Source of the DNA: an uncultured Lentisphaeria bacterium
Lineage (GTDB): Bacteria; Verrucomicrobiota; Lentisphaeria; Victivallales; UBA1829
Direction of reading: 5' to 3'
Assembly: GCA_905197955.1 (NCBI GenBank)
Contig: CAJKAR010000013.1
Location: forward strand, 9,090 to 73,089
DNA length: 64,000 bases
Of this stretch, positions 10,301 to 37,736 are shown piece by piece (within the stretch, counting starts at the first letter, position 1; the number at the start of each line of letters is the position of its first letter). The position numbers were made by a program, and so were the translations under genes. The notes under the pieces were generated by a model, which saw only the letters and a program-made list of their open reading frames with translations, searched no databases and was not told the origin of the DNA.

Positions 10301-10903
10301 AACCGGTTCTGCAAACAGTACATCGCGCCTCGCGGCGGGACTCCGGAAAACGCCGGAATCAAATCCTCGTTTACGGATCGGAAAGACGGGTATGTCTGGA
10401 CCTTCGATATTCCGGTCGTCTACCGGAACAACTTCATTGCCCTGGATCTTGCGGTCAATGACTCGGATGGCGACCGGCAGAAATCCAAGCTCTCCTGGTC
10501 AGGCTGTTCCGACAGCTATCGCAACCGCCGCAATTTCATTGTCCTGGAACTGAACCGGGGAGATGGCGCAGTCATCAGCGCGGCTGTCCGGGATGCCGGA
10601 GGAAAGATTCTTCAGCTCCGAAGCAATGAGAACACGCCGTTTCTCCCGACCGATCAATGGGTGAAACAGGAGTTCCGGTTTGTCCCCGATTACGATGGTT
10701 CCGGCAACATTGTATTCCGCTCGTCGCTTGGCACGAAGTCCGCCGGAGATCTGCGGTTCCGGAAGCTCTCCGTATCGGGAGCGGATGCGGTTCTTCCCCC
10801 TCCGGAAAAAGAACAGAGTCACGCATGGATTGCGGCAAAATTCCGGAAAGGTGTTCCTGTGACCATTTCCTGTGAACTGAAAATGAGCGGAGTTAGAAAA
10901 TGA
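7397..10903 (+). CDS. Secreted multidomain glycoside hydrolase (CBM4/9-like N-terminus, clan GH-A TIM barrel, C-terminal CBM9-like module)
   Basis: Signal peptide MKVLWITAVCAALPVLG. NLVFNSSFELGEKGWNG is a CBM-type beta-sandwich start. The barrel has WSFLEPEQGKFNF and the acid/base-type motif SYEIFNEPQ. The C-terminal part has the CBM9-like motif DSVELFVDQDP..LAVNDSDGD. The GH family is not assignable by eye. Confidence 0.75.
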   Translation: MKVLWITAVCAALPVLGGNLVFNSSFELGEKGWNGFCERQAPENFERKIPEKLWEIDSSTAHSGKNSLKVSLKGNARRTAVFSHDIPVEFGKTYTISFFAKGDKTVRCPVRMRSCMVPPNRAQDDSIIHPTAWGKDVPQVQTRFGMPKEQANMTLTPEWKRYSFQFTPERDFTAYTFSVDSGYRECTVWIDDVQVEEGNTLSPYKPSSPIEIALYLPDRTVGVGKAAGKAVALSYNPPGKKESVTLSLYNLYTDQVEKQQELSFDLPPGIPQEKSFAFDGLKFGMYTVYHSLQPRITTRDYELSPEKPAAQRSTKLKDGDLSYQSAAFIASVPKAPASPKEGYRMGPCLHFGGDLRNSLYRDGMGLGDEFAETLRDSGATITRVWNAFPWSFLEPEQGKFNFTHSDSIIRAMSKYKLAGVYTVMAATFGDRNNPWSRVSWVLPKWVMDRDPAGPQGVKNPFVTNPRFSPLWRPRQEDWEHFLTAVLQRYKGQIDSYEIFNEPQLMMNAASYFPYLKTAYQTIKRIDPAADVVGICATSDFGVNADSFIAQVIRMGGGKFSDVISYHPYMKLDDSTPSQMEQYAGIYKNFRAYGVNRPLANTENYFFENGDAFHFWWNKAPDYDISRYIRHHLIDMGEGIAFSTTVEYDSAFFSSFIHPAQVYHNGSRHGKPQPNLRYVVQAGTSQMISGAKPLGKIDLPSGALGYTYRKGEGIFTVLWNARAKQKSWITLELPAGVSFTEYDIFSNLLSSQNGTLTLELNSIPRYFQWKNASAETVAAIFRNPKERCENPIRVRNANLLRSLDSNGGELHVQVENLSGKVLKNPVFQISSPALKEPVRLTAKEIGYFRTADLSGTVRLAEKCGTEETMEISSEGLRPLRITLPVRRREVIGYRPRSFEIRNVIFGKVESRTDLSAVMELAMKDISTLRVTVRVMDDKPSQNPHLPPYQRDSVELFVDQDPFGGSGEKYNRFCKQYIAPRGGTPENAGIKSSFTDRKDGYVWTFDIPVVYRNNFIALDLAVNDSDGDRQKSKLSWSGCSDSYRNRRNFIVLELNRGDGAVISAAVRDAGGKILQLRSNENTPFLPTDQWVKQEFRFVPDYDGSGNIVFRSSLGTKSAGDLRFRKLSVSGADAVLPPPEKEQSHAWIAAKFRKGVPVTISCELKMSGVRK

Positions 10904-12912
10904 AATACTTCGGCTGCGCCTACTATCCGGAGGCCTGGGAAAAAACACGCTGGGAAACCGATTTCCGGATGATGCGGGATCTCGGATTCAACATGGTCCG
11001 GCTCGGGGAATTCAACTGGGGAAAGTTTGAACCGGAAGAAGGAGTTTTCCACTTTGATGAGTATCTTGAAATACTGGATCTTGCGGATCGGTATGGAATC
11101 CGCGTGATGATGTGCACGCCGACTGCGGCAGTGCCCCGCTGGATGGCGGCTCGTTATCCCGAAACGCAGAAACGAAGAGCCGATGGGACCCGGCCGGAGA
11201 ATGATGCCCGGCAGAGTTACTGTCCCTCTTCCCCGAAGTTCCGCTTTTTTGCTGATCGGATTGTGACGGAGATGGCTCATGCGTTCCGGAATCATCCGGC
11301 AGTTGTCATGTGGCAGCTCGATAATGAATTGAGTGTGGGAGCCGCCACCGGACTTTGTGTCTGCGACGAGTGTACAAAACGCTTTCAGTCCGCCATGCGG
11401 GAGAAGTATCGGACACTGGAAGCGTTCAACCGGGCGTGGAACGGAGCATTCTGGTCCGGAGATTTCCAGTCCTGGGAGGACCTGAAGCCGCCGTTCCGCT
11501 TCCGCCGGGGATGGAAAAAGGAGTATATTCGGGTTCAGGGAGAACTTTTCTCAGAACTGATTCTCCGTCATCGGGATATCCTGAAGAGTGCGAATCCGGA
11601 ATGGGTGGTGACGACGAACAATCCGGCGATGACCTATTCAGACATCCGCCTGGACCATCTTTTTGCCGAACTCGGCTATGCCGCGTGCGACACCTATGTT
11701 TCCTGCGATAATATTTTCCGTTTCCGCGCCTTCTGGGATTTCTACCGGGGAGTCACCGGCAGACAGCAGAAGTTCATGGTCGCGGAGACCGGTGCGTTCA
11801 ATCAGGTCACCACGGAGCCGAATTCCTGGGGAGCTCTGAAACCATGGCTTTGGGAAATGGTTGTCCGGGGAGCGGAGTCGGTTCTGTATTTCCGCTGGCG
11901 GCAGTCCGTGATGGGCGAGGAGACGCATCCGGCGATTCTCCCCTGGTGCGGCAGGCCCGGAAATGCCTATCGGATGATCCGGCAAATCAGAAAGGAAATG
12001 GACGCTCTGCCGATGGATGTTTCGAAACTTCCGCTTCCCGAAACGGAAATCGCGATCGTTCATGACGCCGCTTCCGGTCAGTACCATATGTCGAAAAAAA
12101 GCGATGCGCTTTATCTTGCCACGAACCGGATTCATCTGGCGCTGACCGCACTTGGGAAAAATCCGGATTTCCTGATGCTGAATGAACAGATGGATCTTTC
12201 ACCGTACCGGGTGGTTTTCCTGCCGCTCTGCGAACGGGTATCACCGCGGATTGTCGAGCGGTGGAAGGAGTATGTCCGCAACGGAGGATGCCTCGTGGCA
12301 GTGACCCGTCTGAATCTGATGGAAGAGTCGGGCAGCTATTGCCGGGAACCGTATCCGTGCGGCATGACGGAACTGTTCGGACTCGAAATCGCGGAAAACC
12401 GGGAACTTCTGAATTCTCAGACAGATGCCAATATGGGGGTATTCGATATCTCCAGCCTGCCGAAAAGTTCAGTTCGCCTTTCCTGTTTCGGGGGCACGGC
12501 CGATGCGGAACGTTATGTTGAGGAGATCCTTCCGCAGAGCTGTACCGTTCTGGAGAAACTCTCCTCGACCTGTTTTGCCTCCTCCCCTTTGCTGACCCGG
12601 AATTACTACGGAAAAGGAACGGCATTGTATGTATCGGCATTCCTGGATGTCCCCGGAGTGCGGAAAATGGTTCGCCGTGTTCTGGAGGAGTGCGGCATCT
12701 CTCTTCCGGCTGCGGAACTGCCGCCGGAGGTCTCCCGGATCGAACGGGGAGGATATCTCTTCTACATCAACTCCTCGTCGCGGAAGGGGAGTCTGGAGGA
12801 AGAGATCAGCGGAGAAATCCTGCTCGGAGACGCGGATCCCGGTGAGAAACAGACAATAACATTGAAGCCTTATGAGGTTCTGATGATTCGGCCTTCCGGA
12901 AAATCAGAATAG
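10900..12912 (+). CDS. GH42 beta-galactosidase
   Basis: YYPEAWEKTRWETDFRMMRDLGFNMVRLGEFNWGKFEPEEGVFHF..MMCTPTAAVPRWM..WQLDNELS, and a length of 670 aa typical of GH42. Its ATGA overlaps the upstream stop. Confidence 0.9.
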   Translation: MKYFGCAYYPEAWEKTRWETDFRMMRDLGFNMVRLGEFNWGKFEPEEGVFHFDEYLEILDLADRYGIRVMMCTPTAAVPRWMAARYPETQKRRADGTRPENDARQSYCPSSPKFRFFADRIVTEMAHAFRNHPAVVMWQLDNELSVGAATGLCVCDECTKRFQSAMREKYRTLEAFNRAWNGAFWSGDFQSWEDLKPPFRFRRGWKKEYIRVQGELFSELILRHRDILKSANPEWVVTTNNPAMTYSDIRLDHLFAELGYAACDTYVSCDNIFRFRAFWDFYRGVTGRQQKFMVAETGAFNQVTTEPNSWGALKPWLWEMVVRGAESVLYFRWRQSVMGEETHPAILPWCGRPGNAYRMIRQIRKEMDALPMDVSKLPLPETEIAIVHDAASGQYHMSKKSDALYLATNRIHLALTALGKNPDFLMLNEQMDLSPYRVVFLPLCERVSPRIVERWKEYVRNGGCLVAVTRLNLMEESGSYCREPYPCGMTELFGLEIAENRELLNSQTDANMGVFDISSLPKSSVRLSCFGGTADAERYVEEILPQSCTVLEKLSSTCFASSPLLTRNYYGKGTALYVSAFLDVPGVRKMVRRVLEECGISLPAAELPPEVSRIERGGYLFYINSSSRKGSLEEEISGEILLGDADPGEKQTITLKPYEVLMIRPSGKSE

Positions 12913-12921
12913 TAAGGGGGG

Positions 12922-12959
12922 AATCTCCGATTTGTTCTGACAAATCGGAGATTTTTTTT
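12922..12959 (+). terminator. Rho-independent terminator after the GH42 gene
   Basis: Perfect 13-bp stem aatctccgatttg/caaatcggagatt, 6-nt loop, then T8. Confidence 0.75.
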
Positions 12960-13720
12960 CAATGACGGATGAGACGGGCAAGTTTCCGCTGTACGCCACC
13001 GTCGATGACGAGATCCGCTCCGTTGATGAAGGAAGAATCTTCCGATGCCAGAAACAGGCAGAGAGCGGCGACATCATCCGGTGTTCCGTAACGACCGAGC
13101 GGAATCCCCGTGAACTCCTCCGGAGCCGGACTCCGGCCGCTGACGTTGATGCAGCCGGGAAGGATGTTGTTGATCCGGATTCCCGAAGGTCCGATTTCAA
13201 CGGCAAGCTGTCCGGTCATCGCGTGAATTGCTCCTTTGCTTGCGGCGTAAAGGGTGCGTCCCGGAACGGAAGTGTCCTGATGAACCGAACCGATGTTGAT
13301 GATGCTTCCGGGATGCCCTTTCATCAGCCGGATCTCGTTCAGACAGCAGAAGAGCGTTCCCTTGAGATTGAGATTCATCAGCTGATCGTAAAGTTCAAAG
13401 TTGATTTCCTCCAGCGGACGCGGAGTATGATTCCAGCCGGCATTGTTCACAGCGCAATCGAGACCTCCGAAAACCCGTTCGATCTCTTCAAACATTGCAC
13501 CGAGCTGTCCCGGTTCGCTCAGATCCGCCCGGAAAAGATGGGATTCGCACGGCAGTTCCGCAACAATGCGCGCAGCAAGTTCCGGATCGGAACGGTAATG
13601 AAAAAAAACTCTTGCTCCCGCCTCGGCAAATGCACGGACGATCCCTTCGCCGATTCCGCGGGATGCGCCAGTGACAAGAACCCGTTTTCCTTTTAAATCA
13701 TCATAATGTCCCATATTCAT
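12959..13720 (-). CDS. SDR-family (short-chain) oxidoreductase
   Basis: KGKRVLVTGASRGIGEGI Rossmann motif, NNAG, and the catalytic Y-x3-K (YAASKGAI). The start is ATG 13720 or 13714. The longer ORF-track start is unlikely. Confidence 0.85.
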   Translation of the reverse strand: MNMGHYDDLKGKRVLVTGASRGIGEGIVRAFAEAGARVFFHYRSDPELAARIVAELPCESHLFRADLSEPGQLGAMFEEIERVFGGLDCAVNNAGWNHTPRPLEEINFELYDQLMNLNLKGTLFCCLNEIRLMKGHPGSIINIGSVHQDTSVPGRTLYAASKGAIHAMTGQLAVEIGPSGIRINNILPGCINVSGRSPAPEEFTGIPLGRYGTPDDVAALCLFLASEDSSFINGADLVIDGGVQRKLARLIRH

Positions 13721-13831
13721 TCTCCAGTTTCTCATTCTGATTTGGCTGGAACAGATCGGAAAAAGAGTCTGCTCCGCCGGAGGATGATCCACGATTTCCT
13801 TTTCTTGATTTGCTGTGAGGGTGGACTTTTT

Positions 13832-15391
13832 TCATTGTCCTCTGCGAAGAGGTCGTCCCGCCCGGATTCCTGTCGGCTTTCCGTTCCGCACGGCGATTTG
13901 ACCGTTGACTGTGACAAGACGCATTCCTTCCGCAGTCCGGCGAGGATGCGCAAATGTGGCACGGTCCGCAATTTCCGCATGATGGAATACGCAGAGATCG
14001 GCAAAGTTCTGTTCCGCTATGACTCCTCTTCCACGCAGTCCGAACAGTTCACATGGACGCGCAGAAGCATGAAACACAAATTCGGAAAGCGTCACCCCGT
14101 GACGGAATGCCAGATGCAGAAGCCTTGCAAAAGCCCCGAAACTTCGAGGATGGAGATGATCCAGTCCGGGAAGCGTGTCCGATCCAAAAAGATAGCAGGG
14201 ATGGCGCATCAGTTCGATAAAATCGCGTTCAAGCGTATCCGAAAGACCTTCTTCGCTCTCCCTGGTTTCCGGACGGTAGGAGAGTTGAAGCTCCTCTTCC
14301 GCAAGCAATTCCAACAGCATTTCCGGAATTTCCTGCCCGCGCATCCGTGCGATATCCCGATACGTCCGATTCCGGTAATCGGGATGGTGCGGCGCATGCA
14401 GAAGGACGGCATTCGACGGACTGATCTCGGGATGCCGTTCCCATTCCTTCTGAATCCACTGTTTCCATTCCGGATTTCGCAGTCGTTCCATGATGGAGGA
14501 AAAACCGCCCTCCATCACCCGCATCGGCAGATGAACTGCCGCGTAACCAGCTCCGACAGAATAGGGATAAAAGTCCGCCGTGACACGCAGTCCTTCCTCA
14601 AGACCGCGTTCGATCGGTTCCAGAAGTTTGTCGAGATGTCCCGCTGTTTTCGGATTGGTCCGGTAATGGGAAAAATGGACGCGAGCTCCGCTTCTCCGCG
14701 CAAATTCGAGCACTTCTTCGCGCGAATCGAATTTTTCGGTATGATCCCTCAGCGCTGTTCGCTGATGAACACACACCGGAACATCAAATTCCGCGGCGAC
14801 TCTGCAAATCGCAGCAACCTCTTCCGTATCTCCGAAGGAGGCCGGATAGTAGGCCAAACCGGTGGAAAAGGCACATGCACCTTCTTCAAATGCCTGTCGT
14901 GCAAGATCCTGGGCTTTTTGCACCGGCAGCGGCGCATCGCGAAATCCGCACAGGGCACAACGCAGCGGCGAGTGTGCCAGATGAACTGCCGCATTGACTC
15001 CGGTCGGAGGAAGCGAAGCCAGATATTCCGCACAGGAACCGAAAAGCTGCGGTTCCGCACCGAAAATCCCGGTCATGACCTGTCCATAATCTGAGTGGAA
15101 AAGCGGAAAGAGCCCAATTCCACAGGCTCCGGCGATTTCCGTCGTGATTCCCTGACAGAGCGCCTCGGCCCTGTCGGGAGCTAGGAAAAACTGCCAGTCG
15201 GAGTGAGTATGAACATCAATGAATCCGGGAGTGACAGCCATCCCGGATGCGTCAAACGTCTCCTTCGCCTCACACCGATCCAATCTCCCGACCGCAGCGA
15301 TCCGGTCCCCCCTGACTGCGAGATCCGCCTGGAACGGAGCTCCTCCGAGTCCATCATAAATGGTACCGCCGGCGATCAGAAGGTCGAACAT
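13832..15391 (-). CDS. N-acyl-D-amino-acid deacylase (D-aminoacylase) family amidohydrolase
   Basis: MFDLLIAGGTIYDGLGGAPFQADLAVRGDRIAAVG..VTPGFIDVHTHSD..QGITTE is the canonical D-aminoacylase N-terminus. The start at 15391 lies 4 nt after the RidA stop. Confidence 0.85.
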   Translation of the reverse strand: MFDLLIAGGTIYDGLGGAPFQADLAVRGDRIAAVGRLDRCEAKETFDASGMAVTPGFIDVHTHSDWQFFLAPDRAEALCQGITTEIAGACGIGLFPLFHSDYGQVMTGIFGAEPQLFGSCAEYLASLPPTGVNAAVHLAHSPLRCALCGFRDAPLPVQKAQDLARQAFEEGACAFSTGLAYYPASFGDTEEVAAICRVAAEFDVPVCVHQRTALRDHTEKFDSREEVLEFARRSGARVHFSHYRTNPKTAGHLDKLLEPIERGLEEGLRVTADFYPYSVGAGYAAVHLPMRVMEGGFSSIMERLRNPEWKQWIQKEWERHPEISPSNAVLLHAPHHPDYRNRTYRDIARMRGQEIPEMLLELLAEEELQLSYRPETRESEEGLSDTLERDFIELMRHPCYLFGSDTLPGLDHLHPRSFGAFARLLHLAFRHGVTLSEFVFHASARPCELFGLRGRGVIAEQNFADLCVFHHAEIADRATFAHPRRTAEGMRLVTVNGQIAVRNGKPTGIRAGRPLRRGQ

Positions 15392-15395
15392 CGCG

Positions 15396-15842
15396 TTACT
15401 CCGCCATTTCAACGACCATTTCCACTTCAACAGCAATTCCGTTCGGAAGCGATCCCATCCCGACCGCGGAACGCGCATGGCTTCCGATTTCTTCTCCGAA
15501 GGCTTCCAGAAGAAGTTCGGAAACGCCGTTCATGACAAACGGATGTTCCGTAAAAGATTCGGTTGCATTGACCATGCCGAACACCTTGACAAAACTGCGG
15601 ATTTTATCCAGATCACCGCAGTGGAGTTTGATTGCTTCAAGACAGTGAATGGCAGCTTCCCGTGCAGCGGCATAGCCGTCGGCGGCAGTCAGCGAGGAAC
15701 CGACCTTCCCTTTGATCTTTGTCCCGTGCCCGGAAACAAACAGGAGATTTCCTGTCTGTTTGCTGTGCAGAATAGGGTGACTGCACGGACCCGGAAGGAC
15801 AAGTTCGATTCCCATTTCCGAAAGTTTTGTTTCGATCTTCAT
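15396..15842 (-). CDS. RidA/YjgF-family reactive-intermediate (enamine/imine) deaminase
   Basis: LSEMGIELVLPG..QTGNLLFVSGHG..ARSAVGMGSLPNGIAVEVEMV is the family pattern. Its ATGA overlaps the upstream gene. Confidence 0.8.
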   Translation of the reverse strand: MKIETKLSEMGIELVLPGPCSHPILHSKQTGNLLFVSGHGTKIKGKVGSSLTAADGYAAAREAAIHCLEAIKLHCGDLDKIRSFVKVFGMVNATESFTEHPFVMNGVSELLLEAFGEEIGSHARSAVGMGSLPNGIAVEVEMVVEMAE

Positions 15843-16990
15843 TTTGTGTTTCCTCCTTGTTCCAATATGAGATCCAGTTCCTGAAATCGTTTGATGATCT
15901 GTTCCATTTCGCCGTCTGCCAGGCACATCGGGTTCACATAAACTCCGGGCCGGTTCTCCGAATAGCAGACGATGGAAGGATTTCCTTCTTCCAGCATTCT
16001 GCGGAGTTCCGATGAGCGAATAGAGGTATTTTTCAGAGAGACAAACGCGCGCGGCAGAGGCTGTCCCGCCTGATTCGGCCAGGTGCGTTCCGCAGAAAAA
16101 TGCTTTGCCTCCCCAAGAGCGGAAATCAGTTTCCGGACCTCAGATTCGCACCACTGAAGACGTGCCTCCTCATCCGACTCGACGTACTGCCGGATCGCCG
16201 TGTAGAGAGCAATCATCTCCTCCCTTCCGATTTTCATGATTCTTCCGCATCCGTAGTTCGGAAATCCAAGCAAATTAACAATCTCCAGATACTCCTTTTT
16301 CCCCACCAGCAGTCCGCTTGCCTGAGGTCCCGCAAGGTCTTTGCCTCCGGAGAAACATGCCATATCGCATCCCATATCTTGGGTAAAGTGCCAGAGATTC
16401 GACTTCGGCGGCAACTGCGCGGCGCCATCCACGAGTATGGGAAGACCGAACCGATGAGCAGCATCCCGGAAAGTTTCGAGATTCATACATCCTTCGCCGT
16501 AATAGCCGGAAGGGGTCCGAGAGGCAAAATAACAACAGACCGTATGTTCGTGAAACGCATTCTCCAGCAGTCTTTTATCGAATTGAGCCTCCATGTTCGG
16601 ATACCCGGCAAAACGGAGTTTGACACCGAGCTGTTCAATCGCGTGATCGTAGGGAATGTGCTGCCCCCAGAGAGCAAGAACTTCGCACCGGGCGATCTCT
16701 TCCGATGAAAGGCTCCCGAACTCTCTACCGTAGTGCCTGGCGACGCAAGCCGCAATCGCAAGATAGATCGCCGTACTGCAGGAGTTGCAGATGTATGCCG
16801 CTTCATTGCGGGTCAGTTCCGCCACGCGCCTGTGAAGTGCGTTCTGAAGGCGTTCAATGGAAACATAACTCCGGGCGGCATCGCACATCGCTTCAAGAGT
16901 TGCTTCCGACATTCTGGATGCCCCGACGACCGTATAGGTTCCGACCGCATTGATCAGAGTCGGCACTCCCAGTTCCTCATAAATACTCAT
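15839..16990 (-). CDS. DgaE/SelA-like PLP-dependent enzyme (putative amino-sugar-acid ammonia-lyase)
   Basis: MSIYEELGVPTLINAVGTYTVVGASRMSEATLEAM.. N-terminus and the PLP-lysine block FSGGKDLAGPQASGLLVG, both typical of the SelA/DgaE family. Its ATGA overlaps the upstream gene. Confidence 0.75.
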   Translation of the reverse strand: MSIYEELGVPTLINAVGTYTVVGASRMSEATLEAMCDAARSYVSIERLQNALHRRVAELTRNEAAYICNSCSTAIYLAIAACVARHYGREFGSLSSEEIARCEVLALWGQHIPYDHAIEQLGVKLRFAGYPNMEAQFDKRLLENAFHEHTVCCYFASRTPSGYYGEGCMNLETFRDAAHRFGLPILVDGAAQLPPKSNLWHFTQDMGCDMACFSGGKDLAGPQASGLLVGKKEYLEIVNLLGFPNYGCGRIMKIGREEMIALYTAIRQYVESDEEARLQWCESEVRKLISALGEAKHFSAERTWPNQAGQPLPRAFVSLKNTSIRSSELRRMLEEGNPSIVCYSENRPGVYVNPMCLADGEMEQIIKRFQELDLILEQGGNTK

Positions 16991-18051
16991 TTCTGATTCT
17001 CTCTGATCCCGGTAACGGCCCGATACCATTTTCCCGTTTCCACCAGCTGCTTTTCGAGCGCCGCCAGCGGCACCATTACACTGGAGAGAATACGTTCCGG
17101 CCAGCGTGCTTTCCGTTCTCTGGAATCGACGTAATCCAGAAAATCGCGAAGAGTAACAAGATCCGCTCCGTTGTGACCTCCGTCGGAAAGGTTCGGTGCA
17201 GGAATCACTTCACTTTGACCATTCGAATAACGGATTCGGATTTCGGAACCATGAATTTCCGCAAGGATTTCCCCTTTGGTTCCGAAAATATGGAGATTGC
17301 GCTCATAGGAGCTGCCGCAGCTGGTCAGAGTCTGTGTAAACATGGTTCCATTGTGGAGCACGCCGGCAATGACGGCGGTATCATCGGTCATGGGAGCTTC
17401 TCCATGTCTGTGCCACAGGAAATTTGCCCCGCTCCCCCAGACCGTTTCCGCATAGGAACCGGCAAGATGCTGAAGGAGATCGGTGTCATGTGTCAGCTTG
17501 GCCGTGATGAAACTGCCGCGTTTGCGTGAGAATTTATTGATGAGAAATGCACGGGCGAAATTCTGTCCGACATCACAGGCACTTCGGATCATGACGGGCT
17601 TCCCGATGATTCCGGAGTCAAGAAGCTCTTTCAGCTTCAGCGCAACAGGAAAATTCGGTAAATTCAGCCCGATCTGAAAACAACATTCGCGCGATGTGAC
17701 AAATCGGTAAAGTTCTTCCGCCTGTTCCAGCGTGGGAACAACAGGTTTTTCGCAGTAAACCGCCTTTCCGGCGTCAATCGCATCCTTGACAACCTGGAGA
17801 TGCGTGTCTTCGTAGGTGGAAATGATGACGGTGTCAATCTCCGGCATTTTCAGCAGATCGCGGTAATCCGTGAAGTACGGGATATCCGGACAGCGGAAGG
17901 AAAAAAGCGGTGAAACCACCGGTCTTTCCCGCAGATCCGCCACCGCGGCTGGATATCCGTATTCGGGAAGTTGATTGATTAATGTTTCGGCGAGCTGCTG
18001 CCCGCGCTGTCCGAACGCAATGAATCCGATCCGATGACAGGTTTGCTGCAT
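16987..18051 (-). CDS. Gfo/Idh/MocA-family NAD(P)-dependent oxidoreductase
   Basis: IGFIAFGQRGQQ Rossmann start, DTVIISTYEDTHLQVVKDAIDAGKAVYCEKPV signature. The ATG at 18051 is preceded by gaaaggaag. The ORF-track start at 18078 would swallow the divergent promoter. Confidence 0.85.
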   Translation of the reverse strand: MQQTCHRIGFIAFGQRGQQLAETLINQLPEYGYPAAVADLRERPVVSPLFSFRCPDIPYFTDYRDLLKMPEIDTVIISTYEDTHLQVVKDAIDAGKAVYCEKPVVPTLEQAEELYRFVTSRECCFQIGLNLPNFPVALKLKELLDSGIIGKPVMIRSACDVGQNFARAFLINKFSRKRGSFITAKLTHDTDLLQHLAGSYAETVWGSGANFLWHRHGEAPMTDDTAVIAGVLHNGTMFTQTLTSCGSSYERNLHIFGTKGEILAEIHGSEIRIRYSNGQSEVIPAPNLSDGGHNGADLVTLRDFLDYVDSRERKARWPERILSSVMVPLAALEKQLVETGKWYRAVTGIRENQK

Positions 18052-18066
18052 TTTGCTTCCTTTCTC

Positions 18067-18095
18067 TTGACTGCTCAATTCAGATGCCTTATATT
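18067..18095 (+). promoter_or_regulatory. Candidate promoter of the divergent AraC regulator
   Basis: TTGACT, 17 nt, TATATT, about 45 nt upstream of the ATG at 18141, in the 89-bp divergent intergenic region. Confidence 0.35.
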
Positions 18096-18140
18096 ATAAT
18101 CGGATCAGGGATGAAATAGAATGGCAGAAAAAGATAAAAT

Positions 18141-19037
18141 ATGGCTTTATCCCACATCAGGGATGCAATCGGAAAAAATGCGTTAAGGCCCCCGCGCACG
18201 TTGTTTTCCGGAGGATATTCCTGCGAGGCTCCGTTTTTCCCGGAGGATATCCTGGTGTGGAAATCGTCATCGGAGCAGACGGTTACCGATGTATCAATTC
18301 ACCAGAGGATGATCCTGAAAATCATACTTTCCGGTGATGTCGTAACGGTTGTGGACGGACTGAGAATTCCCATGAAAGCAGCGGATATGATTCTGTTTTT
18401 TCCCTATCAGTTTCACGCCACCCGGCTGCTCTGTCCCCGTTCGGAATATTCATTTCTTGCCATCACTTTTACAGAGCGGACACGGAACTATTCTTCACTT
18501 CTGCCTTTGAAAAATCATCTTCTTGCTCCGGACGCCGCTGATGCACGGAATCTTGCGTGTATCATTCGAACCTGTTTGCACAAAAAACGCTGTGAGCCGG
18601 AAAAGGGGGTGCTGGCTTTGATGGAACTTCTGTTTGCACAACGGAGAAAGGTGCTTCGCCGTGCACAGGAAGGACACCCATCCAATCTTGTCCCCCGGGA
18701 GACCGCGGATCGAATCTCTGATTATTTCCGCAACAATTTCAATAAACCAATTTCGCTGAAATCCGTTGCTGCCGAATTCGGAATGAGCGAGGAAACCATA
18801 CGGAGGATTTTTCATAAAACGTATGGAGAAATCACTCCGGGCAGATTGATCAGCCGTCTGCGGATGCAATTTGCCGTTGAAATGCTGGAACATACGGAGG
18901 AACCTATCTCACGGATCGCGGAAAAGTGCGGATATACAGACCCGTTTGTATTCAGCAGAGCATTCAAACGCCAGACTGGAATTTCTCCACAGAAACACCG
19001 GAAACTTTATTTCTCTTCTCTTGAGAGATCGGAATAA
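18141..19037 (+). CDS. AraC-family transcriptional regulator
   Basis: C-terminal double HTH: ISLKSVAAEFGMSEETIRRIFHKTYG..RMQFAVEMLEHTEEPISRIAEKCGYTDPFVFSRAFKRQTGISP. Cupin-like N-terminal half. Confidence 0.9.
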   Translation: MALSHIRDAIGKNALRPPRTLFSGGYSCEAPFFPEDILVWKSSSEQTVTDVSIHQRMILKIILSGDVVTVVDGLRIPMKAADMILFFPYQFHATRLLCPRSEYSFLAITFTERTRNYSSLLPLKNHLLAPDAADARNLACIIRTCLHKKRCEPEKGVLALMELLFAQRRKVLRRAQEGHPSNLVPRETADRISDYFRNNFNKPISLKSVAAEFGMSEETIRRIFHKTYGEITPGRLISRLRMQFAVEMLEHTEEPISRIAEKCGYTDPFVFSRAFKRQTGISPQKHRKLYFSSLERSE

Positions 19038-19447
19038 CTCCAGAAAAAAAAAGACTGAGGTACGAAGCTTTTCCGCCGCTTCAAAAATCATCTTCGCCAT
19101 TGAACCGTGAGTCCGGCTTTGGAAAAGAGAAGAAGCATCGGAACGCAATTCGTTGCATAGCAATCGGCGGAATGAACGGAATATGATCTTTACGGCAACC
19201 GGATTCAATTTCCGATAACGGATGCGGTCATTGACCTGTCTTATGCAGATTTTTCAAACTGGCATTGAGGCTGTTGGCATTCCGGAAGGATGGATTGTAA
19301 TACTCAAACAGACTTGAAAAAGGAAGAACACGAGAAGGGACAAACCTTTTCTCTGAAGGGTTGTCCTTCCCGCATCCGTCTTTTGCATAAGGAACTGTCG
19401 ATTTTCCGTTTGCACATTGTCTGCTTTTCCCTGCAGAAGCCAGGGCA

Positions 19448-20725
19448 CTACTTCAGAAAAAGCTCAACGACAGGAATCACTGTTCCCCGCGGCTGTCCCA
19501 GAAACTGCAATGCGGCATACCCTTCCGGAATTCTCGGATTGGGATCGTCGGCATTACTTTCAGCGCTCTCGATAATACGCACAAACGCCCCGTCATGAAG
19601 TGTTTGTGCATAACGAATCCGGCCTTTCATCTTCGGCAGGAAAAGCATTCTCTGCCAGCGCATAACATGAACGTAAAGACGGTTGGTTACGGGGTTGTAA
19701 GTGTATCGGCAATCCCGTGGTTCCGGGAACTCCTCCGGAGCGGCTCCGCATCCGTAAATCGAACGGGAATGATACTTCATCCATTTTGCCAGCAGTTCCA
19801 GACATTGCTCCTCATGTTCATCAATACAGCCTCGTGCGGTGGGACCGATATTGAAAAGGGAATTGCCGTTCATGGATGTCTGATTTATCAGGATGTAAAG
19901 GAACTCCACAGGCGATTTCAAATAGGCAAGCTCATCCCGGTTATATCCCCAGGATGCGCCGAAACAATGACAACCCTCCCAGGCGGCCGGGAAGCCGTTT
20001 TCATCCAGACACTCCCTCTCCCGCAGATAATTTTCCGGTGTCACGATATCGTGCGCCCCCTTCAGTCCGTGACGAGAATTGAGAATGATTTCCGGCTGCA
20101 GCTGGCGCACAAGAGCAACTAATTTTTCTGCTTCGTTACTTGCTGCCCCCTGCTGAAAAGAGATGTCAAACCAGAGTTCTGTGATCTCTCCGTAGCCGGT
20201 AAGCAGTTCGGTAATCTGATTGCGGACATATTCATTATAGATGTGGTTGTCCCGGACCGCATTGAGGCGCTCCTGTTCCTCCTGCGGAAGAGCCGCCTGC
20301 GGGCTGTTCGGACTGATTTTATAATGCGGATGATGCCAGTCTGTAATGGAATAATAGAGGCCGATCCGAATCCCTTCGGCACGAAACGCATCCACGATCT
20401 GCCGCAGGACATCGCATCCATACGGAGTATTCGTAACCTTATAATCCGTGAAGCGGGTATCCCACATGCAGAAACCATCATGATGTTTTGTGGTAAAAAT
20501 CACATATTTCATTCCAGCCGCCCTGGCCCGCCGCGCCCAATCTGCGGGATCAAACAAATCGGGATTGAAGTGTTCGATCATATACTGATATTCTTCTTCC
20601 GAAATCCGGGAGAAGACGCGGCACCATTCATGGGTTCCGGACATTGCATAGATTCCCCAATGAATAAACATACCCAGACGATCATGCTTGAATTGTGTAA
20701 GATCCGGATGATAATACGCTTGCAT
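19448..20725 (-). CDS. GH29 alpha-L-fucosidase
   Basis: RLGMFIHWGIYAM..MKYVIFTTKHHDGFCMWDT..GIRIGLYYS. The ATG at 20725 is preceded by gaggaggag. The ORF-track TTG start merely translates the RBS. Confidence 0.9.
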   Translation of the reverse strand: MQAYYHPDLTQFKHDRLGMFIHWGIYAMSGTHEWCRVFSRISEEEYQYMIEHFNPDLFDPADWARRARAAGMKYVIFTTKHHDGFCMWDTRFTDYKVTNTPYGCDVLRQIVDAFRAEGIRIGLYYSITDWHHPHYKISPNSPQAALPQEEQERLNAVRDNHIYNEYVRNQITELLTGYGEITELWFDISFQQGAASNEAEKLVALVRQLQPEIILNSRHGLKGAHDIVTPENYLRERECLDENGFPAAWEGCHCFGASWGYNRDELAYLKSPVEFLYILINQTSMNGNSLFNIGPTARGCIDEHEEQCLELLAKWMKYHSRSIYGCGAAPEEFPEPRDCRYTYNPVTNRLYVHVMRWQRMLFLPKMKGRIRYAQTLHDGAFVRIIESAESNADDPNPRIPEGYAALQFLGQPRGTVIPVVELFLK

Positions 20726-20782
20726 GATTTTCTCCTCCTCTTCCAATGTAAAATGGGAATTCAGTACTTTTCTTTGGAAAGA

Positions 20783-22108
20783 TCAGTGCTTGAAAATATA
20801 GTTCCGGATTCTTCGGGAGGCTTCGGCATTCCCGGTCATGTGCCCATCCAGCGGGTTGGTGTAGAGGGCTTTCCGTGTGGTTTCCGGAAGATTGTGGAAT
20901 ACGGTATAAACTGAGGTCGGAGGACAGACAAAATCCGAAAATCCGGTCAGCATGATGATTTCACATCGAATTCTCCGTGCGAAATTGTTATTGTCGTAAT
21001 AGGCGGCGGTTTTCAGAATTTTCTGATCTCCCTTCGGATTGTTGAAGAGTCCCGGCCAGCCGGGTCTTCGTCCTGCAAGGATTCCGGCATGATCGCCCAT
21101 TGCGGGAACGCTGGACCAGCAGAAAGTGACTGCAGGATCCAATGCCGCCCCAGCCAGAGATTGCGCACCGCCTTGACTTCCGCCCATGGAAATCAGACGT
21201 TTCCCATCCCATTCCGGCAAGGCTTTCAGATAGTCGAACGCCCGCATGACACGAAGGTACATTCCGTTGAAATAAAATTTTTCCCGATCTGTTTTATTCT
21301 GATGGGCATAATTTTTCAGTTCGTTCTGGTTGAGAGCGGTATAAAATTCCGGTTTTTCAAGAGGCGGAATCCCATGCGCGTTGACATGCAGAATAATCGC
21401 ACCTTCCACATATTGACGGTTGAAGCTGGATCGGTAAACGCCCGCCCCTTGAAAAATTGCAATCGCAGGAAGGGAATGCGGTTTTGCATTTTTCGGAATG
21501 GAAAGAATCCCGGTAAGCGGTTTGGAACCGGCGCAGGCAACTGTAACAATAAAATGGTCCGCCCTGTTGTTCAGCCCCTGCGGAGCTTCCACCGGAATCC
21601 GTGATATTTCCCTGACAGGGACCTGATCAAGCTTTTTGCGCTGAGCACTCCAGAAGGCATCGAAATCAGCTGGCTCCGAATCATTCTGACGCAGTTTTTC
21701 CGGCTCAACCATTGCCCCGGCAAACGAGTTGACAAACCATCCGCGTACTTTTTTGATTCTTTCTCCTTTTTCGTTCAGGGCAAAGACTCGAACCCAAACC
21801 CATCCGGGTTTGTCGAGAGAGGTTTGGATCTTCAGCGTCTGATCTCCGGGAGCACGTTTCGTTTCTACCGGAAAACCGTTTTTATGAAGCGTATATTCCA
21901 TGATTTTACCGGAAGCCGGAACTCCGTTTTCGAAAAGTCTGAATTGAAAGCCAATCGCTTCTCCGCAACGGAAAATGCCATCTTTTCTGCTGACTTCCGC
22001 AGAGAAGACAAGTGGTTCCTTTTGCGGTGCTTGTGCCGCTTGAGCCTGAAGGAAACCGGGAGTGAATAGGATCATGCACAGGATTGCTGACAGAGAAAAG
22101 ATTTTCAT
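20783..22108 (-). CDS. CE7-type acetyl esterase (acetylxylan esterase / deacetylase family), secreted
   Basis: Signal peptide MKIFSLSAILCMILFTPGFLQA. Nucleophile elbow GGSQGG, characteristic of CE7 (AXE1). C-terminal ..DGH.. region. Confidence 0.75.
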   Translation of the reverse strand: MKIFSLSAILCMILFTPGFLQAQAAQAPQKEPLVFSAEVSRKDGIFRCGEAIGFQFRLFENGVPASGKIMEYTLHKNGFPVETKRAPGDQTLKIQTSLDKPGWVWVRVFALNEKGERIKKVRGWFVNSFAGAMVEPEKLRQNDSEPADFDAFWSAQRKKLDQVPVREISRIPVEAPQGLNNRADHFIVTVACAGSKPLTGILSIPKNAKPHSLPAIAIFQGAGVYRSSFNRQYVEGAIILHVNAHGIPPLEKPEFYTALNQNELKNYAHQNKTDREKFYFNGMYLRVMRAFDYLKALPEWDGKRLISMGGSQGGAQSLAGAALDPAVTFCWSSVPAMGDHAGILAGRRPGWPGLFNNPKGDQKILKTAAYYDNNNFARRIRCEIIMLTGFSDFVCPPTSVYTVFHNLPETTRKALYTNPLDGHMTGNAEASRRIRNYIFKH

Positions 22109-31552: not shown

Positions 31553-31670
31553 CCGCAGAAGACTCTTTTCCCGGAATGACTCACTCTCCTGTTTGTTTTC
31601 CTTAAAAGGAAGGCTATATTAGCCGGTGGTTCCAAAAGAAAACCATTCACAAAAACAAAGGGGAAACATC

Positions 31671-32885
31671 ATGCAGAAACGGTCAAAATGGTTCAATGAG
31701 GCCCGATACGGACTCTTTATCCACTGGGGAGCTTATTCAAAGGCGGCGCGCGGAGAATGGGTCATGAACAGAGAACGCATCCCGCTGGAAGAATACCGGG
31801 AGTGTTATGTAAAGCAGTTCAAGGCGGAACACTACGACCCCGCGGACTGGATGAAAAAACCAGTCCGATGGGGCATGAAGTACACGGTTCTCACCACACG
31901 TCATCACGACGGATTCGCTCTGTGGAGTTCGAAAGTCAACCCCTACAACGCTGCAAAACTGGGACCTGGCCGCGACCTTGTCGCTCCGTATGTCAAAGCA
32001 GTTCGGGAAGCCGGACTCAAGGTCGGACTCTACTACTCCCCCGCCTCCTGGGCGCATCCGGACTATCCCGGTGCCTGCTTCCGCGACTGGCCCGGTGAAA
32101 AAGACTGGAAAAGCGAAGCACACCGTAAACGCTTCATCGACTATTACCGTGCGGAATTGAAAGAACTCATGACCGGATACGGCAAAATTGATTATCTCTG
32201 GTTCGACGGCTGCATTCCGGAAAACATCGAAGGCGAAGAAACCATCGCCATGCTCCGGGAACTGCAGCCTGAAATGCTGATCAACAACCGGCTCGGAACT
32301 CCGTTTGACATCAAGGTCAGCGAACAGACCATCAATCCCGCAGCCCCCGGACAGGACTGGGAAGCCTGCATGACCCTCAATGAAAACTGGGGTTATCACT
32401 CCGGCGACCATTCGTGGAAAAATCCCGCCGCTGTGGTTTCCATGCTCATGACCTGTGCAAAAAGCTCCGGCAATCTTCTTCTGAACATTGGCCCGAAAGC
32501 CGACGGCACCATTCCGGAAGAATCCGTCAAAATTCTGGACGCAGCAGGCGAATGGCTCAAACACAACCGGGAAGCAATCACCGACTCCGAACGCAGTCCG
32601 TTCACCTGGAACAACACGGCACGTCTCATCACCGTGAAAGGGAACCGGATCTATATCACATTCGAGCACGAACCCGGAGGACAATTCTGCTGGAGCGAAC
32701 TGAAAAACCGTCTCTGCCGCGCCTGGTGGCTCGATGACGGCACCCCGATTCAGTTCCGTCAGGAGCCGGATCGGCTGTTCCTGCTGAATCTGCCGCCGAA
32801 TCTTCCGCTCCGGACCGCGGTTCTCGAAGTCGAGGGGAAGCCAGAGGCCCTGACCGCCCAGACCACGTTCTGGATCCCGGAATGA
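31671..32885 (+). CDS. GH29 alpha-L-fucosidase (second copy)
   Basis: WFNEARYGLFIHWGAYS..MKYTVLTTRHHDGFALWSS..GLKVGLYYS. The ATG at 31671 follows gggga. The ORF-track GTG start is rejected. Confidence 0.9.
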   Translation: MQKRSKWFNEARYGLFIHWGAYSKAARGEWVMNRERIPLEEYRECYVKQFKAEHYDPADWMKKPVRWGMKYTVLTTRHHDGFALWSSKVNPYNAAKLGPGRDLVAPYVKAVREAGLKVGLYYSPASWAHPDYPGACFRDWPGEKDWKSEAHRKRFIDYYRAELKELMTGYGKIDYLWFDGCIPENIEGEETIAMLRELQPEMLINNRLGTPFDIKVSEQTINPAAPGQDWEACMTLNENWGYHSGDHSWKNPAAVVSMLMTCAKSSGNLLLNIGPKADGTIPEESVKILDAAGEWLKHNREAITDSERSPFTWNNTARLITVKGNRIYITFEHEPGGQFCWSELKNRLCRAWWLDDGTPIQFRQEPDRLFLLNLPPNLPLRTAVLEVEGKPEALTAQTTFWIPE

Positions 32886-33830: not shown

Positions 33831-34673
33831 ATGGATACCATTATCTTATCGGTCATTGTAGTGGGAATCACGGGAATGGTGCTGGGAGCATTCATTGCCG
33901 TAGCCGCGAAGAAGTTTGCGGTGGAACTCGATCCCAGAATTGATGAAGTGGCAGGAATGCTCCCCGGAGCAAACTGCGGAGGATGCGGATTCGCCGGATG
34001 TTCCGATCTGGCAAAGAATATTGTCGAAGGCAAGGCGCCCGCCGGAAGATGCCCTGTCTGCACAGCGGAAACGGTGGAAAAGATCGCCGCTTTTCTCGGC
34101 CAGGCCGCGGAAAAGAAGGAGAAAATGGTTGCCGTGGTGCTTTGCAGCGGCACACTTTCCAATTCCAAAGTGGCAGCCGGCTATAACGGTGTGCTTGACT
34201 GCCGTTCCGCAAACATCATGAACGGAGGCGGAAAAGCCTGTCGGTTCGGATGCATCGGATTCGGAACCTGCGCCCGCACCTGCAAGTTCGGTGCTATTGA
34301 AGTGATCGACGGACTTGCCGTGGTGCATCCGGAACTCTGCGTCGGCTGCGGCCAGTGCGCGGAGGTCTGCCCGCGGAAAATGATCAAACTCGTACCGGCC
34401 TCAACCCAGGTACATGTCTACTGCAACTCGCTGGAAAAACCGGTTCAGCGCCGGAAAAAATGCGCCGGAGCCTGTATCTCCTGCCGCAAATGCATCAAAG
34501 CCGAACCGGAAAAGATGTCCAGCCAGGGATTCATGGTGCGGGTCAATTATTCAAATGCGCCGGATGCGTCGATCGTGGAAAAGGCGCAGTGTCCTGCGAA
34601 ATGTCTGCTTACTCCCGAAGAACACCTCAAAGCTGTCCGGGATGGAATCAAAAAGAACGAAGGTGCGGCATGA
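33831..34673 (+). CDS. rnfB: Rnf complex subunit B (polyferredoxin type)
   Basis: N-terminal TM segment, LPGANCGGCGFAGC motif, and several CxxCxxCxxxCP ferredoxin clusters. Confidence 0.9.
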   Translation: MDTIILSVIVVGITGMVLGAFIAVAAKKFAVELDPRIDEVAGMLPGANCGGCGFAGCSDLAKNIVEGKAPAGRCPVCTAETVEKIAAFLGQAAEKKEKMVAVVLCSGTLSNSKVAAGYNGVLDCRSANIMNGGGKACRFGCIGFGTCARTCKFGAIEVIDGLAVVHPELCVGCGQCAEVCPRKMIKLVPASTQVHVYCNSLEKPVQRRKKCAGACISCRKCIKAEPEKMSSQGFMVRVNYSNAPDASIVEKAQCPAKCLLTPEEHLKAVRDGIKKNEGAA

Positions 34674-36001: not shown

Positions 36002-36016
36002 TTAAGGTGTAAGAGA

Positions 36017-37734: not shown

Positions 37735-37736
37735 CC

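Follow-up and report, generated by a model that had tools for sequence, protein, structure and literature searches.

A putative AraC-controlled operon for the catabolism of N-acetylated amino sugars via their aldonic acids in an uncultured Lentisphaeria bacterium

Five closely packed genes of an uncultured Lentisphaeria bacterium combine an amidohydrolase, an enzyme dependent on pyridoxal 5'-phosphate (PLP), a Rid-family protein and two dehydrogenases, and the question that they raise is which substrate could call for all of them. They lie in a stretch of 64,000 nucleotides (contig CAJKAR010000013.1 of assembly GCA_905197955.1), referred to below as the window, and encode, in order of transcription, a Gfo/Idh/MocA oxidoreductase (GFO), a SelA/DgaE-like PLP enzyme, the Rid protein, a D-aminoacylase-family amidohydrolase and a classical short-chain dehydrogenase/reductase (SDR), facing a divergently transcribed AraC-family regulator (Table 1). 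The gene layout was read from the listing of open reading frames (ORFs) and from the raw sequence, and families were assigned by Pfam and NCBIfam profile searches. With somewhat better than even confidence, homology and gene order lead us to view these genes as an operon that is controlled by AraC and serves to break down an N-acetylated amino sugar via its aldonic acid, that is, as a non-orthologous variant of the known ong pathway for N-acetyl-D-glucosaminate (GlcNAc1A).

In the route that we propose, free N-acetylglucosamine (GlcNAc) and/or N-acetylgalactosamine (GalNAc), possibly released by neighbouring glycosidases, would be oxidised at C1 by the GFO or the SDR, and the resulting lactone would open spontaneously or through the action of an unlinked lactonase. 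The amidohydrolase would then take acetate off the N-acetyl-D-hexosaminate, and the PLP enzyme would α,β-eliminate the C3 hydroxyl of the unphosphorylated D-hexosaminate. The enamine/imine so formed is probably released, since the clade of the PLP enzyme lacks the histidine that protonates C3 in its characterised relative, and the Rid protein would hydrolyse it to 2-keto-3-deoxy-gluconate (KDG) or 2-keto-3-deoxy-galactonate (KDGal) and NH3; the configuration of the substrate may be either gluco or galacto, and both are considered here. The keto-deoxy acid would be finished outside the window, either by a kinase and an aldolase for the 6-phosphorylated acid (KDPG or KDPGal) or by an aldolase of the dihydrodipicolinate synthase (DHDPS) type, and the other dehydrogenase may take the keto-deoxy acid, or the aldehyde formed from it, as its substrate. 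The middle of this scheme, i.e. deacetylation, PLP-dependent elimination of ammonia and Rid-mediated imine hydrolysis, appears probable to us: homology, the residues conserved, the precedent of ong, which is experimental, and the genomic context across phyla all speak for it. The opening step, oxidation of the N-acetylhexosamine (HexNAc) at C1 by a dehydrogenase, is proposed by analogy and stands a little short of an even chance; it is suggested by the two sugar-type dehydrogenases present in every Lentisphaerae version of the cluster and by relatives that contain a lactonase or an aldose dehydrogenase.

The deacylase, the PLP enzyme and the Rid protein

All six ORFs were found where an initial annotation, made from the sequence alone, had placed them, and the profile searches proposed there as a check uphold its assignments at family level; every specific NCBIfam model was missed by a wide margin, so that the operon proteins are distant members of their families. 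That annotation had also held that no pathway with this gene set was characterised, which cannot be maintained. In the ong cluster of Pseudoalteromonas prydzensis, OngB deacetylates GlcNAc1A, the fold-type-III PLP enzyme OngC deaminates the resulting glucosaminate (GlcN1A) to KDG and NH3, ongD is a RidA gene, and KdgK phosphorylates KDG (Jiang et al. 2022, Nat Commun, PMC9537276); OngB is a member of the D-aminoacylase family, and its structure has been solved (PMC12017989). An N-acetyl-D-hexosaminate is formally an N-acyl-D-α-amino acid and thus fits the substrate class of that family. The annotation's logic of deacylase, PLP ammonia-lyase and Rid acting in turn on a 2-acetamido-2-deoxy-aldonate draws support both from the residues kept in the deacylase and from gene neighbourhoods in other phyla.

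The amidohydrolase scores 171 bits with PRK09061 (cutoff 340), and its matches in the PDB are the N-acyl-D-glutamate deacylase of B. bronchiseptica (3gip, 204.6 bits), the D-aminoacylase AfDam of A. faecalis (1m7j, 190 bits) and PpOngB (9kb1, 159.7 bits). The metal ligands and the catalytic aspartate are all kept (H61, H63, C90, H209, H242 and D405, corresponding to OngB H68, H70, C97, H222, H252 and D368). At the positions that anchor the acetamido group and the α-carboxylate the window protein has I109, Y181, R244, Y275, A281, L407 and R416, five of which are identical or conservative and two substituted (OngB Lys254 by R244, and a serine by A281). In OngB, the small or polar cavity residues A193, A256, Q298 and G348 accommodate the C3–C6 hydroxyls of GlcNAc1A (PMC12017989). 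A180 of the window deacylase matches A193, and OngB position 256 falls in a gap or, in the pairwise HMMER alignment, opposite Asn. From homology, the conserved metal, catalytic and anchor residues and the OngB precedent, we propose that the protein is an N-acetyl-D-hexosaminate deacetylase.

One may ask whether the operon degrades ordinary N-acyl-D-amino acids instead, e.g. N-acetyl-D-serine, N-acetyl-D-threonine or derivatives of other β-hydroxy D-amino acids, with the deacylase acting first and the PLP enzyme and Rid then yielding a 2-keto acid. By score, the deacylase is indeed closest to N-acyl-D-glutamate deacylase and D-aminoacylase, with which it has all metal ligands in common (HxH, Cys, His, His, Asp); enzymes of the OngC type deaminate D-Ser and D-Thr as well; and peptidases occur in some neighbourhoods of the PLP family. 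Yet identity to those two deacylases is only about 33%, the insertion domain of the window protein (residues ~283–392) is longer than theirs, the position of AfDam Phe191 holds alanine, as it does in OngB, and Asn aligns pairwise with the hydrophobic Met254 of AfDam. The gene context is likewise that of a sugar acid: the operon is located among glycoside hydrolases, genes for KDG/KDGal kinases, Eda aldolases and a lactonase accompany those deacylase-linked PLP clades that lie closest to the window, and two sugar-type dehydrogenases would be left without a role. On these grounds we consider ordinary N-acyl-D-amino acids improbable as the substrate and retain an N-acetyl-D-hexosaminate.

The PLP enzyme remains far below the cutoffs of the 'DgaE family' model TIGR01437 (166.8 vs. 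385.3 bits) and of the DgaE equivalog NF047797 (123.4 vs. 600 bits), and is matched by HMMER in the PDB to the ammonia-lyase for D-glucosaminate 6-phosphate (DGL; 7lc0, 94.8 bits) and to Cap15 (8t7j). Judged by sequence, DGL is its closest characterised relative, at an identity of about 24–28%. An AlphaFold2 model (m0b4ff3182576; mean confidence score pLDDT 84.5, with loop 160–166 of low confidence) exhibits the SelA-like fold-type-I fold with the PLP lysine in place, and Foldseek aligns it with TM-scores of 0.81 to Cap15 and 0.77 to DGL, with SelA behind at ~0.62. In an alignment of 83 family sequences with DGL, K217 corresponds to the Schiff-base lysine of DGL and is invariant in all 83. DGL His162 and His163 are reported to be strictly conserved throughout the DGL sequences, and His163 to be the C3 proton donor, which may prevent release of a toxic enamine (PMC9529869). 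Both histidines are absent from the window enzyme, which has T159 and G162 at these positions, and the His163 position is Gly or Ala in 74 of the 83 family sequences. A cluster formed by Arg301, Arg332 and Arg346 was proposed, by manual docking, as the 6-phosphate site of DGL (PMC9529869); the window enzyme has R314, Y343 and M355 instead, so that two of the three arginines are replaced, and across the family R301 is kept, R332 is variable and R346 has become Met (74/83). The initial label 'DgaE-like' thus holds for membership of the SelA/DgaE-like family and fails for orthology to DgaE, with 123 of the 600 bits that the equivalog calls for and with both histidines and two arginines gone.

We infer from this alignment that the substrate is unphosphorylated and that the enamine/imine is released. 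Loss of the C3 proton-donor histidine would lead to such release, and would explain why a Rid partner accompanies this PLP clade almost throughout and is absent from the dga operon. Homology to DGL, loss of two of the three phosphate-binding arginines and genomic context together prompt our proposal that the enzyme is an ammonia-lyase for non-phosphorylated D-hexosaminate; its clade is routinely mis-annotated as selenocysteine synthase.

The Rid protein had initially been called RidA. It does belong to the Rid family, but with 18.4 bits for TIGR00004 (cutoff 106.25) the archetypal RidA subfamily is excluded, and it is better described as a Rid1-like PF14588 protein. Its nearest structures are 3d01, PA0814 and ACIAD3089. 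PA0814 and ACIAD3089 belong to Rid1 and have been shown to deaminate imines, and an equivalent of S. enterica RidA Arg105 distinguishes those members of the Rid family that are competent for this reaction (PMC5619798). The window protein possesses this residue: R124, located in the motif HARSAVGMGSLP (HARSAVG), aligns with HARAAVG of 3d01.

Could the SelA-like enzyme perform a reaction other than ammonia elimination, such as a retro-aldol cleavage, Cap15-like oxidative chemistry or a transamination, on an amino-sugar-like β-hydroxy amino acid, the operon then serving an unrecognised metabolite? The low identity to DGL, the equally close structural neighbour Cap15 and the missing DGL histidines would allow for this. 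Tight and widespread coupling to Rid is, on the other hand, characteristic of eliminations that release an enamine or imine, KDG/KDGal kinase and Eda genes lie downstream in many loci, and O2-dependent chemistry is unlikely in a host that is presumably an anaerobe, to judge from its Rnf complex and from the gut origin of the metagenome-assembled genome (MAG). We give little credence to such other chemistry, and ammonia elimination from a D-hexosaminate is assumed in what follows.

Related loci and the two dehydrogenases

A scan of one genome per species for relatives of the PLP enzyme gathered more than 570 loci, in genomes that span Lentisphaerae, Clostridia, Spirochaetes, Planctomycetota, Chloroflexi and Proteobacteria. 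The closest relatives (67–87% PLP identity) come from Lentisphaerae/Victivallales MAGs, mostly of animal-gut origin. Seven Lentisphaerae loci (L001–L004, L007, L009 and L011) share the block AraC<>GFO-PLP-Rid-amidohydrolase-(DHDPS)-SDR, and this recurrence argues for a conserved unit rather than a chance juxtaposition; four others (L005, L006, L008 and L010) exhibit a variant without amidohydrolase, AraC<>PLP-Rid-DHDPS-SDR-GFO. GFO and SDR are both kept in both variants, and an AraC orthologue (39–86% identity) occupies the same divergent position in L001–L009 and L011. Co-occurrence elsewhere, which the initial annotation had named as a check, is hence found for the block within Lentisphaerae and for the PLP gene with amidohydrolase and Rid across phyla.

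Upstream of the variant cluster, L006, L008 and L009 have only vitamin-biosynthesis and unrelated genes and no transporter. As a separate observation, the deacylase-less cluster (L005–L010) continues after GFO with three conserved genes (e.g. L006 12393–17131), which encode a 598-residue protein without Pfam match, a protein whose N terminus bears a prepilin-type methylation motif, and a protein of ~700 residues with a weak DUF4350 match.

The space in front of the SDR gene, initially put at about 110 bp, measures 117 bp. At this place, between amidohydrolase and SDR, an intact DHDPS-family gene is found in L003 (8656–9576) and L004 (9624–10544); L002 has an internally deleted remnant (~11202–11714) of which residues 1–17 and 145–306 remain, L011 retains fragments only (~11178–11615), and the gene is wholly gone in the window, in L001 and in L007. 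Because the gene is intact, decayed or gone across the relatives, the gap reads as the trace left by loss of this gene, whose product was likely a 2-keto-3-deoxy-acid aldolase. N-acetylmannosaminate, derived from sialic acid through a DHDPS protein resembling NanA, was also considered as a substrate and set aside on stereochemical grounds: its L-configuration at C2 misfits both a D-aminoacylase and the D-specific DGL family.

For the wider family, the ORFs of 79 loci from many phyla were clustered and the recurrent families annotated, and loci were counted among the 55 of at least 10 kb that lie outside Lentisphaerae. An amidohydrolase, either of the D-aminoacylase type or a 411-residue 'amidohydrolase/deacetylase' of the PRK09237/EF_0837 type, is encoded in 29 of these, a Rid protein in 30, a PfkB KDG kinase, Eda KDPG aldolase, DHDPS or RraA-type aldolase in 20, and a transporter of the tripartite ATP-independent periplasmic (TRAP), sodium:solute symporter (SSF) or ABC type in 42. 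No component of a phosphotransferase system (PTS) was among the recurrent neighbour families annotated across the 79 loci.

Four kinds of locus are particularly telling. Of the versions of the oxidative HexNAc route proposed here, the fullest is that of the Clostridia MAG SUG1201 (L034, 401–7885), where eight genes on one strand form a tight operon in the order RraA-deacylase-PLP-SDR-7-bladed lactonase-RidA-Eda-KDG/KDGal kinase; a similar arrangement is found in L024 (4730–10588). A Treponemataceae locus (L042; IclR-Eda-PfkB-ABC-PLP-deacylase) encodes the PLP enzyme and the deacylase that are closest to those of the window outside Lentisphaerae, at 59% and 51%, respectively. Endozoicomonas ascidiicola (L030, 7992–16292) has the order PLP-RidA-(OngB homologue)-SSF-DgoK-Eda-PfkB-Eda, in which DgoK is a KDGal kinase; the amidohydrolase is 51% identical to the GlcNAc1A deacetylase PpOngB and carries A193/A256/Q298, and within 17 kb of sequence at this locus no homologue of the fold-III enzyme OngC was observed. 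In Caldilineaceae (L061–L063, L067, L068 and L074), genes for a substrate-binding protein, an Amidohydro_2 protein, a glucose/sorbosone dehydrogenase (GSDH) dependent on pyrroloquinoline quinone (PQQ) and a redoxin precede the PLP gene, followed in some by DHDPS, an order that resembles a separate solution for the oxidation of an amino sugar ahead of PLP-dependent deamination. In a neighbour-joining tree, the PLP enzymes linked to a deacylase of the D-aminoacylase type form one supergroup that includes the window clade, with the exception of that of L030. Taken together, the gene neighbourhoods say that the PLP family would turn a 2-amino-2-deoxy-aldonate into KDG and/or KDGal.

In marine Spirochaetia MAGs (L045, L046, L051, L052 and L078), a sulfatase with a C-terminal domain of the N-sulphoglucosamine-sulphohydrolase type adjoins the PLP gene, which hints at catabolism of a sulfated amino sugar in that clade.

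The two dehydrogenases are less readily placed. The GFO contains PF01408 (61.2 bits), PF22725 (47.1 bits) and PF02894 (46.8 bits) as well as an EKP motif at residues 101–103; its best equivalog is IolG (98 bits, cutoff 355), and NCBIfam and PDB searches returned only generic matches, to inositol and xylose dehydrogenases. The SDR has TGASRGIG (TGxxxGxG) at residue 15, NNAG at residue 90 and Y156-x3-K160, and its best NCBIfam match is the 'glucose 1-dehydrogenase' subfamily PRK07231 (199.2 bits, cutoff 215). We regard the GFO as a candidate HexNAc or hexosamine 1-dehydrogenase, and the SDR as a candidate sugar 1-dehydrogenase or 2-keto-3-deoxy-acid dehydrogenase. That one of them makes the aldonate from HexNAc, as the initial annotation suggested, is plausible, its sole support being analogy, either with loci in which a lactonase lies beside a dehydrogenase (L034, L024 and L005) or with the Caldilineaceae operons that pair a PQQ aldose dehydrogenase with Amidohydro_2.

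The same deacylase–lyase–Rid core could also be fed with an acid that is imported ready-made, as in the ong system, the dehydrogenases then acting downstream (on the 2-keto-3-deoxy acid, or on glyceraldehyde released by a DHDPS-type aldolase) or on another substrate. This would agree with the many related loci that have TRAP or SSF transporters, which are typical of carboxylates, and lack a dehydrogenase; with the position of the SDR gene, always directly after DHDPS where DHDPS is present; with scores for SDRs of the KduD/gluconate 5-dehydrogenase type that are similar to that for glucose 1-dehydrogenase; and with L001, which appears to tolerate a stop codon in its GFO gene. No acid transporter is encoded, however, in the window or in any Lentisphaerae locus, and free N-acetylhexosaminates would be expected mainly where lytic polysaccharide monooxygenases (LPMOs) or oxidases act, so that the anoxic gut seems an unlikely source. 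Moreover, a lactonase beside a dehydrogenase, as in the three loci just named, makes sense only after oxidation at C1. We judge uptake of the finished acid to be unlikely, if worth keeping in mind, and prefer oxidation of the HexNAc by one of the two dehydrogenases.

Several points weigh against the oxidative route as we propose it. The SelA-like family is functionally diverse, and Cap15, the top structural neighbour of the modelled PLP enzyme, is an O2-dependent PLP enzyme. The deacylase is 29% identical to OngB and 33% to AfDam, with specificity positions 298 and 348 in or next to the insertion domain and not reliably alignable. Neither dehydrogenase is matched to a specific characterised enzyme in the NCBIfam and PDB searches, so that C1 may be oxidised by either of them or by neither, and the GFO orthologue of L001 (6940–8004) has an in-frame stop at codon 113 (EQAE*LYRF vs. 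EQAEELYRF in the window), which makes it a pseudogene or else reflects a fault in the assembly. The window contains no transporter, lactonase, kinase or aldolase and thus does not make up a complete pathway by itself: tblastn of the window with PfkB, Eda, DHDPS, RraA, TRAP, SSF, MR_MLE, sulfatase and 7-bladed lactonase representatives from related loci gave no matches, which indicates that the lower pathway is not hidden there, and Pfam annotation of the window ORFs likewise revealed no kinase, aldolase, lactonase, TRAP or SSF transporter, in agreement with what had first been noted for kinase, aldolase and transporter. A fold-III OngC-like protein (Ala_racemase_N plus D-ser_dehydrat) adjoins the SelA-like gene in L025 (4458–5573), L026 and L054; the two PLP enzymes are thus not always alternatives, and the idea of a strict non-orthologous displacement of OngC was softened. 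Finally, M20, M24, M81 or S8 peptidases in some family neighbourhoods suggest other amino-acid-like substrates in those clades.

Operon layout and genomic surroundings

The features of the locus are collected in Table 1. As initially described, the first four minus-strand genes are joined by two ATGA overlaps and a 4-nt gap, and the AraC gene is divergent: direct reading of the sequence gives cagaaATGAgt where the GFO stop overlaps the PLP start, caaaATGAag where the PLP stop overlaps the Rid start, and gagTAAcgcgATG across the Rid–amidohydrolase junction. The same product lengths of 354, 383, 148, 519 and 251 residues were obtained when genes were called independently on a public contig that is nearly identical (L080).

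Table 1. Features of the operon and its immediate context (window coordinates)
Feature	Position	Strand	Basis or remark
AraC-family transcriptional regulator	18141..19037	+	PF12833 70.9 bits, PF00165 61.9 bits
Divergent intergenic control region AraC/GFO	18052..18140	.	89 bp
Gfo/Idh/MocA NAD(P) oxidoreductase (GFO), 354 aa, operon gene 1	16987..18051	-	PF01408, PF22725, PF02894
SelA/DgaE-like fold-type-I PLP enzyme, 383 aa	15839..16990	-	PF03841, PF00266 above cutoff
Rid-family (Rid1-like) protein, 148 aa	15396..15842	-	PF14588 59.1 bits, PF01042 34.6 bits
D-aminoacylase-family (subtype V) amidohydrolase, 519 aa	13832..15391	-	PF07969; PDB matches
Gap, apparent site of lost DHDPS-family gene, 117 bp	13715..13831	.	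Comparison with relatives
Classical SDR, 251 aa, last operon gene	12959..13714	-	PF13561 193 bits
Hairpin between convergent SDR and GH42 genes	12924..12951	.	Folding vs. shuffles
Glycoside hydrolase family 42 (GH42)	10900-12912		Context gene, convergent to SDR
GH29, first	19448-20746		Context gene
GH29, second	31626-32885		Context gene
AXE1 esterase	20783-22108		Two genes away from operon

Within the control region between AraC and GFO, GCCATTCyATTTCA, a TATAATAT box that lies ~45 nt upstream of the GFO ATG and a ribosome-binding region, AGAGAAAGGAA, are among the blocks kept in the window, L001, L002 and L003; their conservation would point to a regulatory function. A scan of 12800–19200 for promoters and terminators gave sites no commoner than in shuffled sequence. 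At the other end of the operon, the hairpin, the one element to stand out on folding, has a minimum free energy of -22.8 kcal/mol on the plus strand and -19.0 kcal/mol on the minus strand (z-scores -5.7 and -6.5), none of 200 shuffles folding equally well; with its perfect stem of 14–20 bp, followed by U8 on the plus strand, it probably acts as a terminator, either shared or bidirectional. The window as a whole was also scanned for tRNA genes and Rfam families, with no match and hence no riboswitch or RNA element in the operon.

Annotation of the window bears out the glycan-related context that had been noted, namely GH42, two GH29 and an esterase, here of the AXE1 type, and adds a GH42-like protein of 1168 residues with carbohydrate-binding modules encoded near the operon. 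The link between operon and glycosidases is suggested solely by gene order shared with close relatives. In L071, L075 and L077 (SAR324, Deltaproteobacteria and Caldilineaceae), too, the SelA-like PLP gene is directly followed by AXE1-type acetyl esterase genes, two in tandem, and esterases near the PLP genes and near the window operon indicate a possible tie to O-acetylated substrates. The remainder of the window is housekeeping (Rnf complex, glucose-6-phosphate dehydrogenase, GlmS, SbcC and HrpA), the genes for the Rnf-type ion-translocating ferredoxin:NAD oxidoreductase at 33831–38408 encoding an Fe-S subunit, RnfD, an FMN-binding subunit and an Rnf-Nqr membrane subunit.

Comparison with known routes and implications

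The ong pathway is fed by LPMO-oxidised chitin and has been reported almost only in Gammaproteobacteria. It shares with the proposed route the order of events, that is, a deacetylase of the D-aminoacylase family, then PLP-dependent elimination of ammonia to KDG with a Rid gene alongside, and no phosphorylation before deamination; furthermore, the PLP relative in L030 is part of a cluster that resembles ong and also encodes an SSF transporter, kinases, aldolases and an OngB homologue of 51% identity. The differences are considerable: (i) OngC is of fold type III, whereas the only PLP enzyme of the operon is SelA/DgaE-like and of fold type I, (ii) the window deacylase, 29% identical to OngB, belongs to a separate deep-branching clade and the Rid protein is Rid1-like, (iii) two dehydrogenases are added, and KdgK, the SSS-type sodium symporter OngIT, the GH20 enzyme OngA, a TonB-dependent receptor and the LPMO context are not found in the window, and (iv) the regulator is RpiR in ong and AraC in the window, whose host is a gut Lentisphaerae bacterium.

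With the dga system the operon has in common the SelA-like fold, the PLP lysine and the class of reaction, a β-elimination on a D-configured 2-amino-aldonate to a 2-keto-3-deoxy acid. The window enzyme differs from DGL in scoring far under the cutoffs of both DgaE models, in lacking His162/His163 and in having Y343 and M355 in place of two arginines; the mannose-type PTS (dgaABCD) and the aldolase DgaF are not in the window, and deacylase and Rid, present in the window, are absent from the dga operon. A route from glucosamine via D-glucosaminate and a DgaE-like enzyme has been put forward for haloarchaea (Natrarchaeobius) as a genome-based prediction only (PMC12343721). There, too, a sugar 1-dehydrogenase, a DgaE homologue and a Rid/RutC-family gene lie near glycan-degrading genes, and oxidation precedes deamination; by contrast, that route assumes that the sugar itself is deacetylated (CE14) and that glucosaminate is phosphorylated, and it lacks a deacylase of the D-aminoacylase type.

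The De Ley-Doudoroff, the non-phosphorylative Entner-Doudoroff and the L-fucose/L-rhamnose dehydrogenase routes proceed from a sugar 1-dehydrogenase, in some cases with a lactonase, to a 2-keto-3-deoxy acid and then to a DHDPS-type aldolase or to a kinase and an Eda aldolase, and SDR or Gfo/Idh/MocA dehydrogenases are the first enzyme of such oxidative sugar routes. In the operon, the aldonate dehydratase step of these routes would be replaced by deacetylation and PLP-dependent elimination of ammonia, because C2 carries an acetamido group. Cap15 from capuramycin biosynthesis (8t7j), of the same SelA-like family and the best structural match with a TM-score of 0.81, acts on a sugar-borne β-hydroxy-α-amino acid. 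It differs from the window enzyme in keeping the DGL-type His163 and all three arginines in the alignment, in its biosynthetic context and in having no Rid partner.

Searches of the open-access literature for a characterised SelA-like ammonia-lyase acting on non-phosphorylated glucosaminate, for a pathway with an N-acetylhexosamine 1-dehydrogenase or for catabolism of N-acetylgalactosaminate yielded nothing except the papers on ong and DGL and the haloarchaeal prediction. The core chemistry is already known from ong; new here are the SelA/DgaE-like fold-type-I lyase, the loss of the DgaE histidine and of two arginines, and the two cytoplasmic dehydrogenases, which may supply the aldonate. A bolder generalisation, which we offer tentatively and would not yet back at even chances, is that the SelA-like clade represents a widespread ammonia-lyase for non-phosphorylated D-glucosaminate and/or D-galactosaminate that non-orthologously replaces OngC, and that in anaerobic gut Lentisphaerae and Clostridia it is fed by cytoplasmic NAD(P)-dependent HexNAc 1-dehydrogenases, yielding a complete oxidative route for GlcNAc or GalNAc, free of O2 and LPMOs, that bypasses the canonical phosphorylative steps of NagK/NagA/NagB (or Aga).

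If the proposed pathway is correct, a function would be assigned to a large orphan clade of 'SelA-like/DgaE-family' PLP enzymes and to a deep clade of D-aminoacylase-like amidohydrolases, and the known range of hexosaminate catabolism would extend from aerobic marine Gammaproteobacteria to anaerobic phyla of gut and sediment. A structure–function rule would emerge as well, in which loss of the C3 proton-donor histidine separates DGL, which has no Rid partner, from the PLP clade of the window, which nearly always has one. Finally, the operon may be a sign that gut anaerobes can oxidise HexNAc along a route independent of oxygen, and such dehydrogenase-started use of GlcNAc or GalNAc from host glycans would change metabolic reconstructions of gut Lentisphaerae, a poorly known group.

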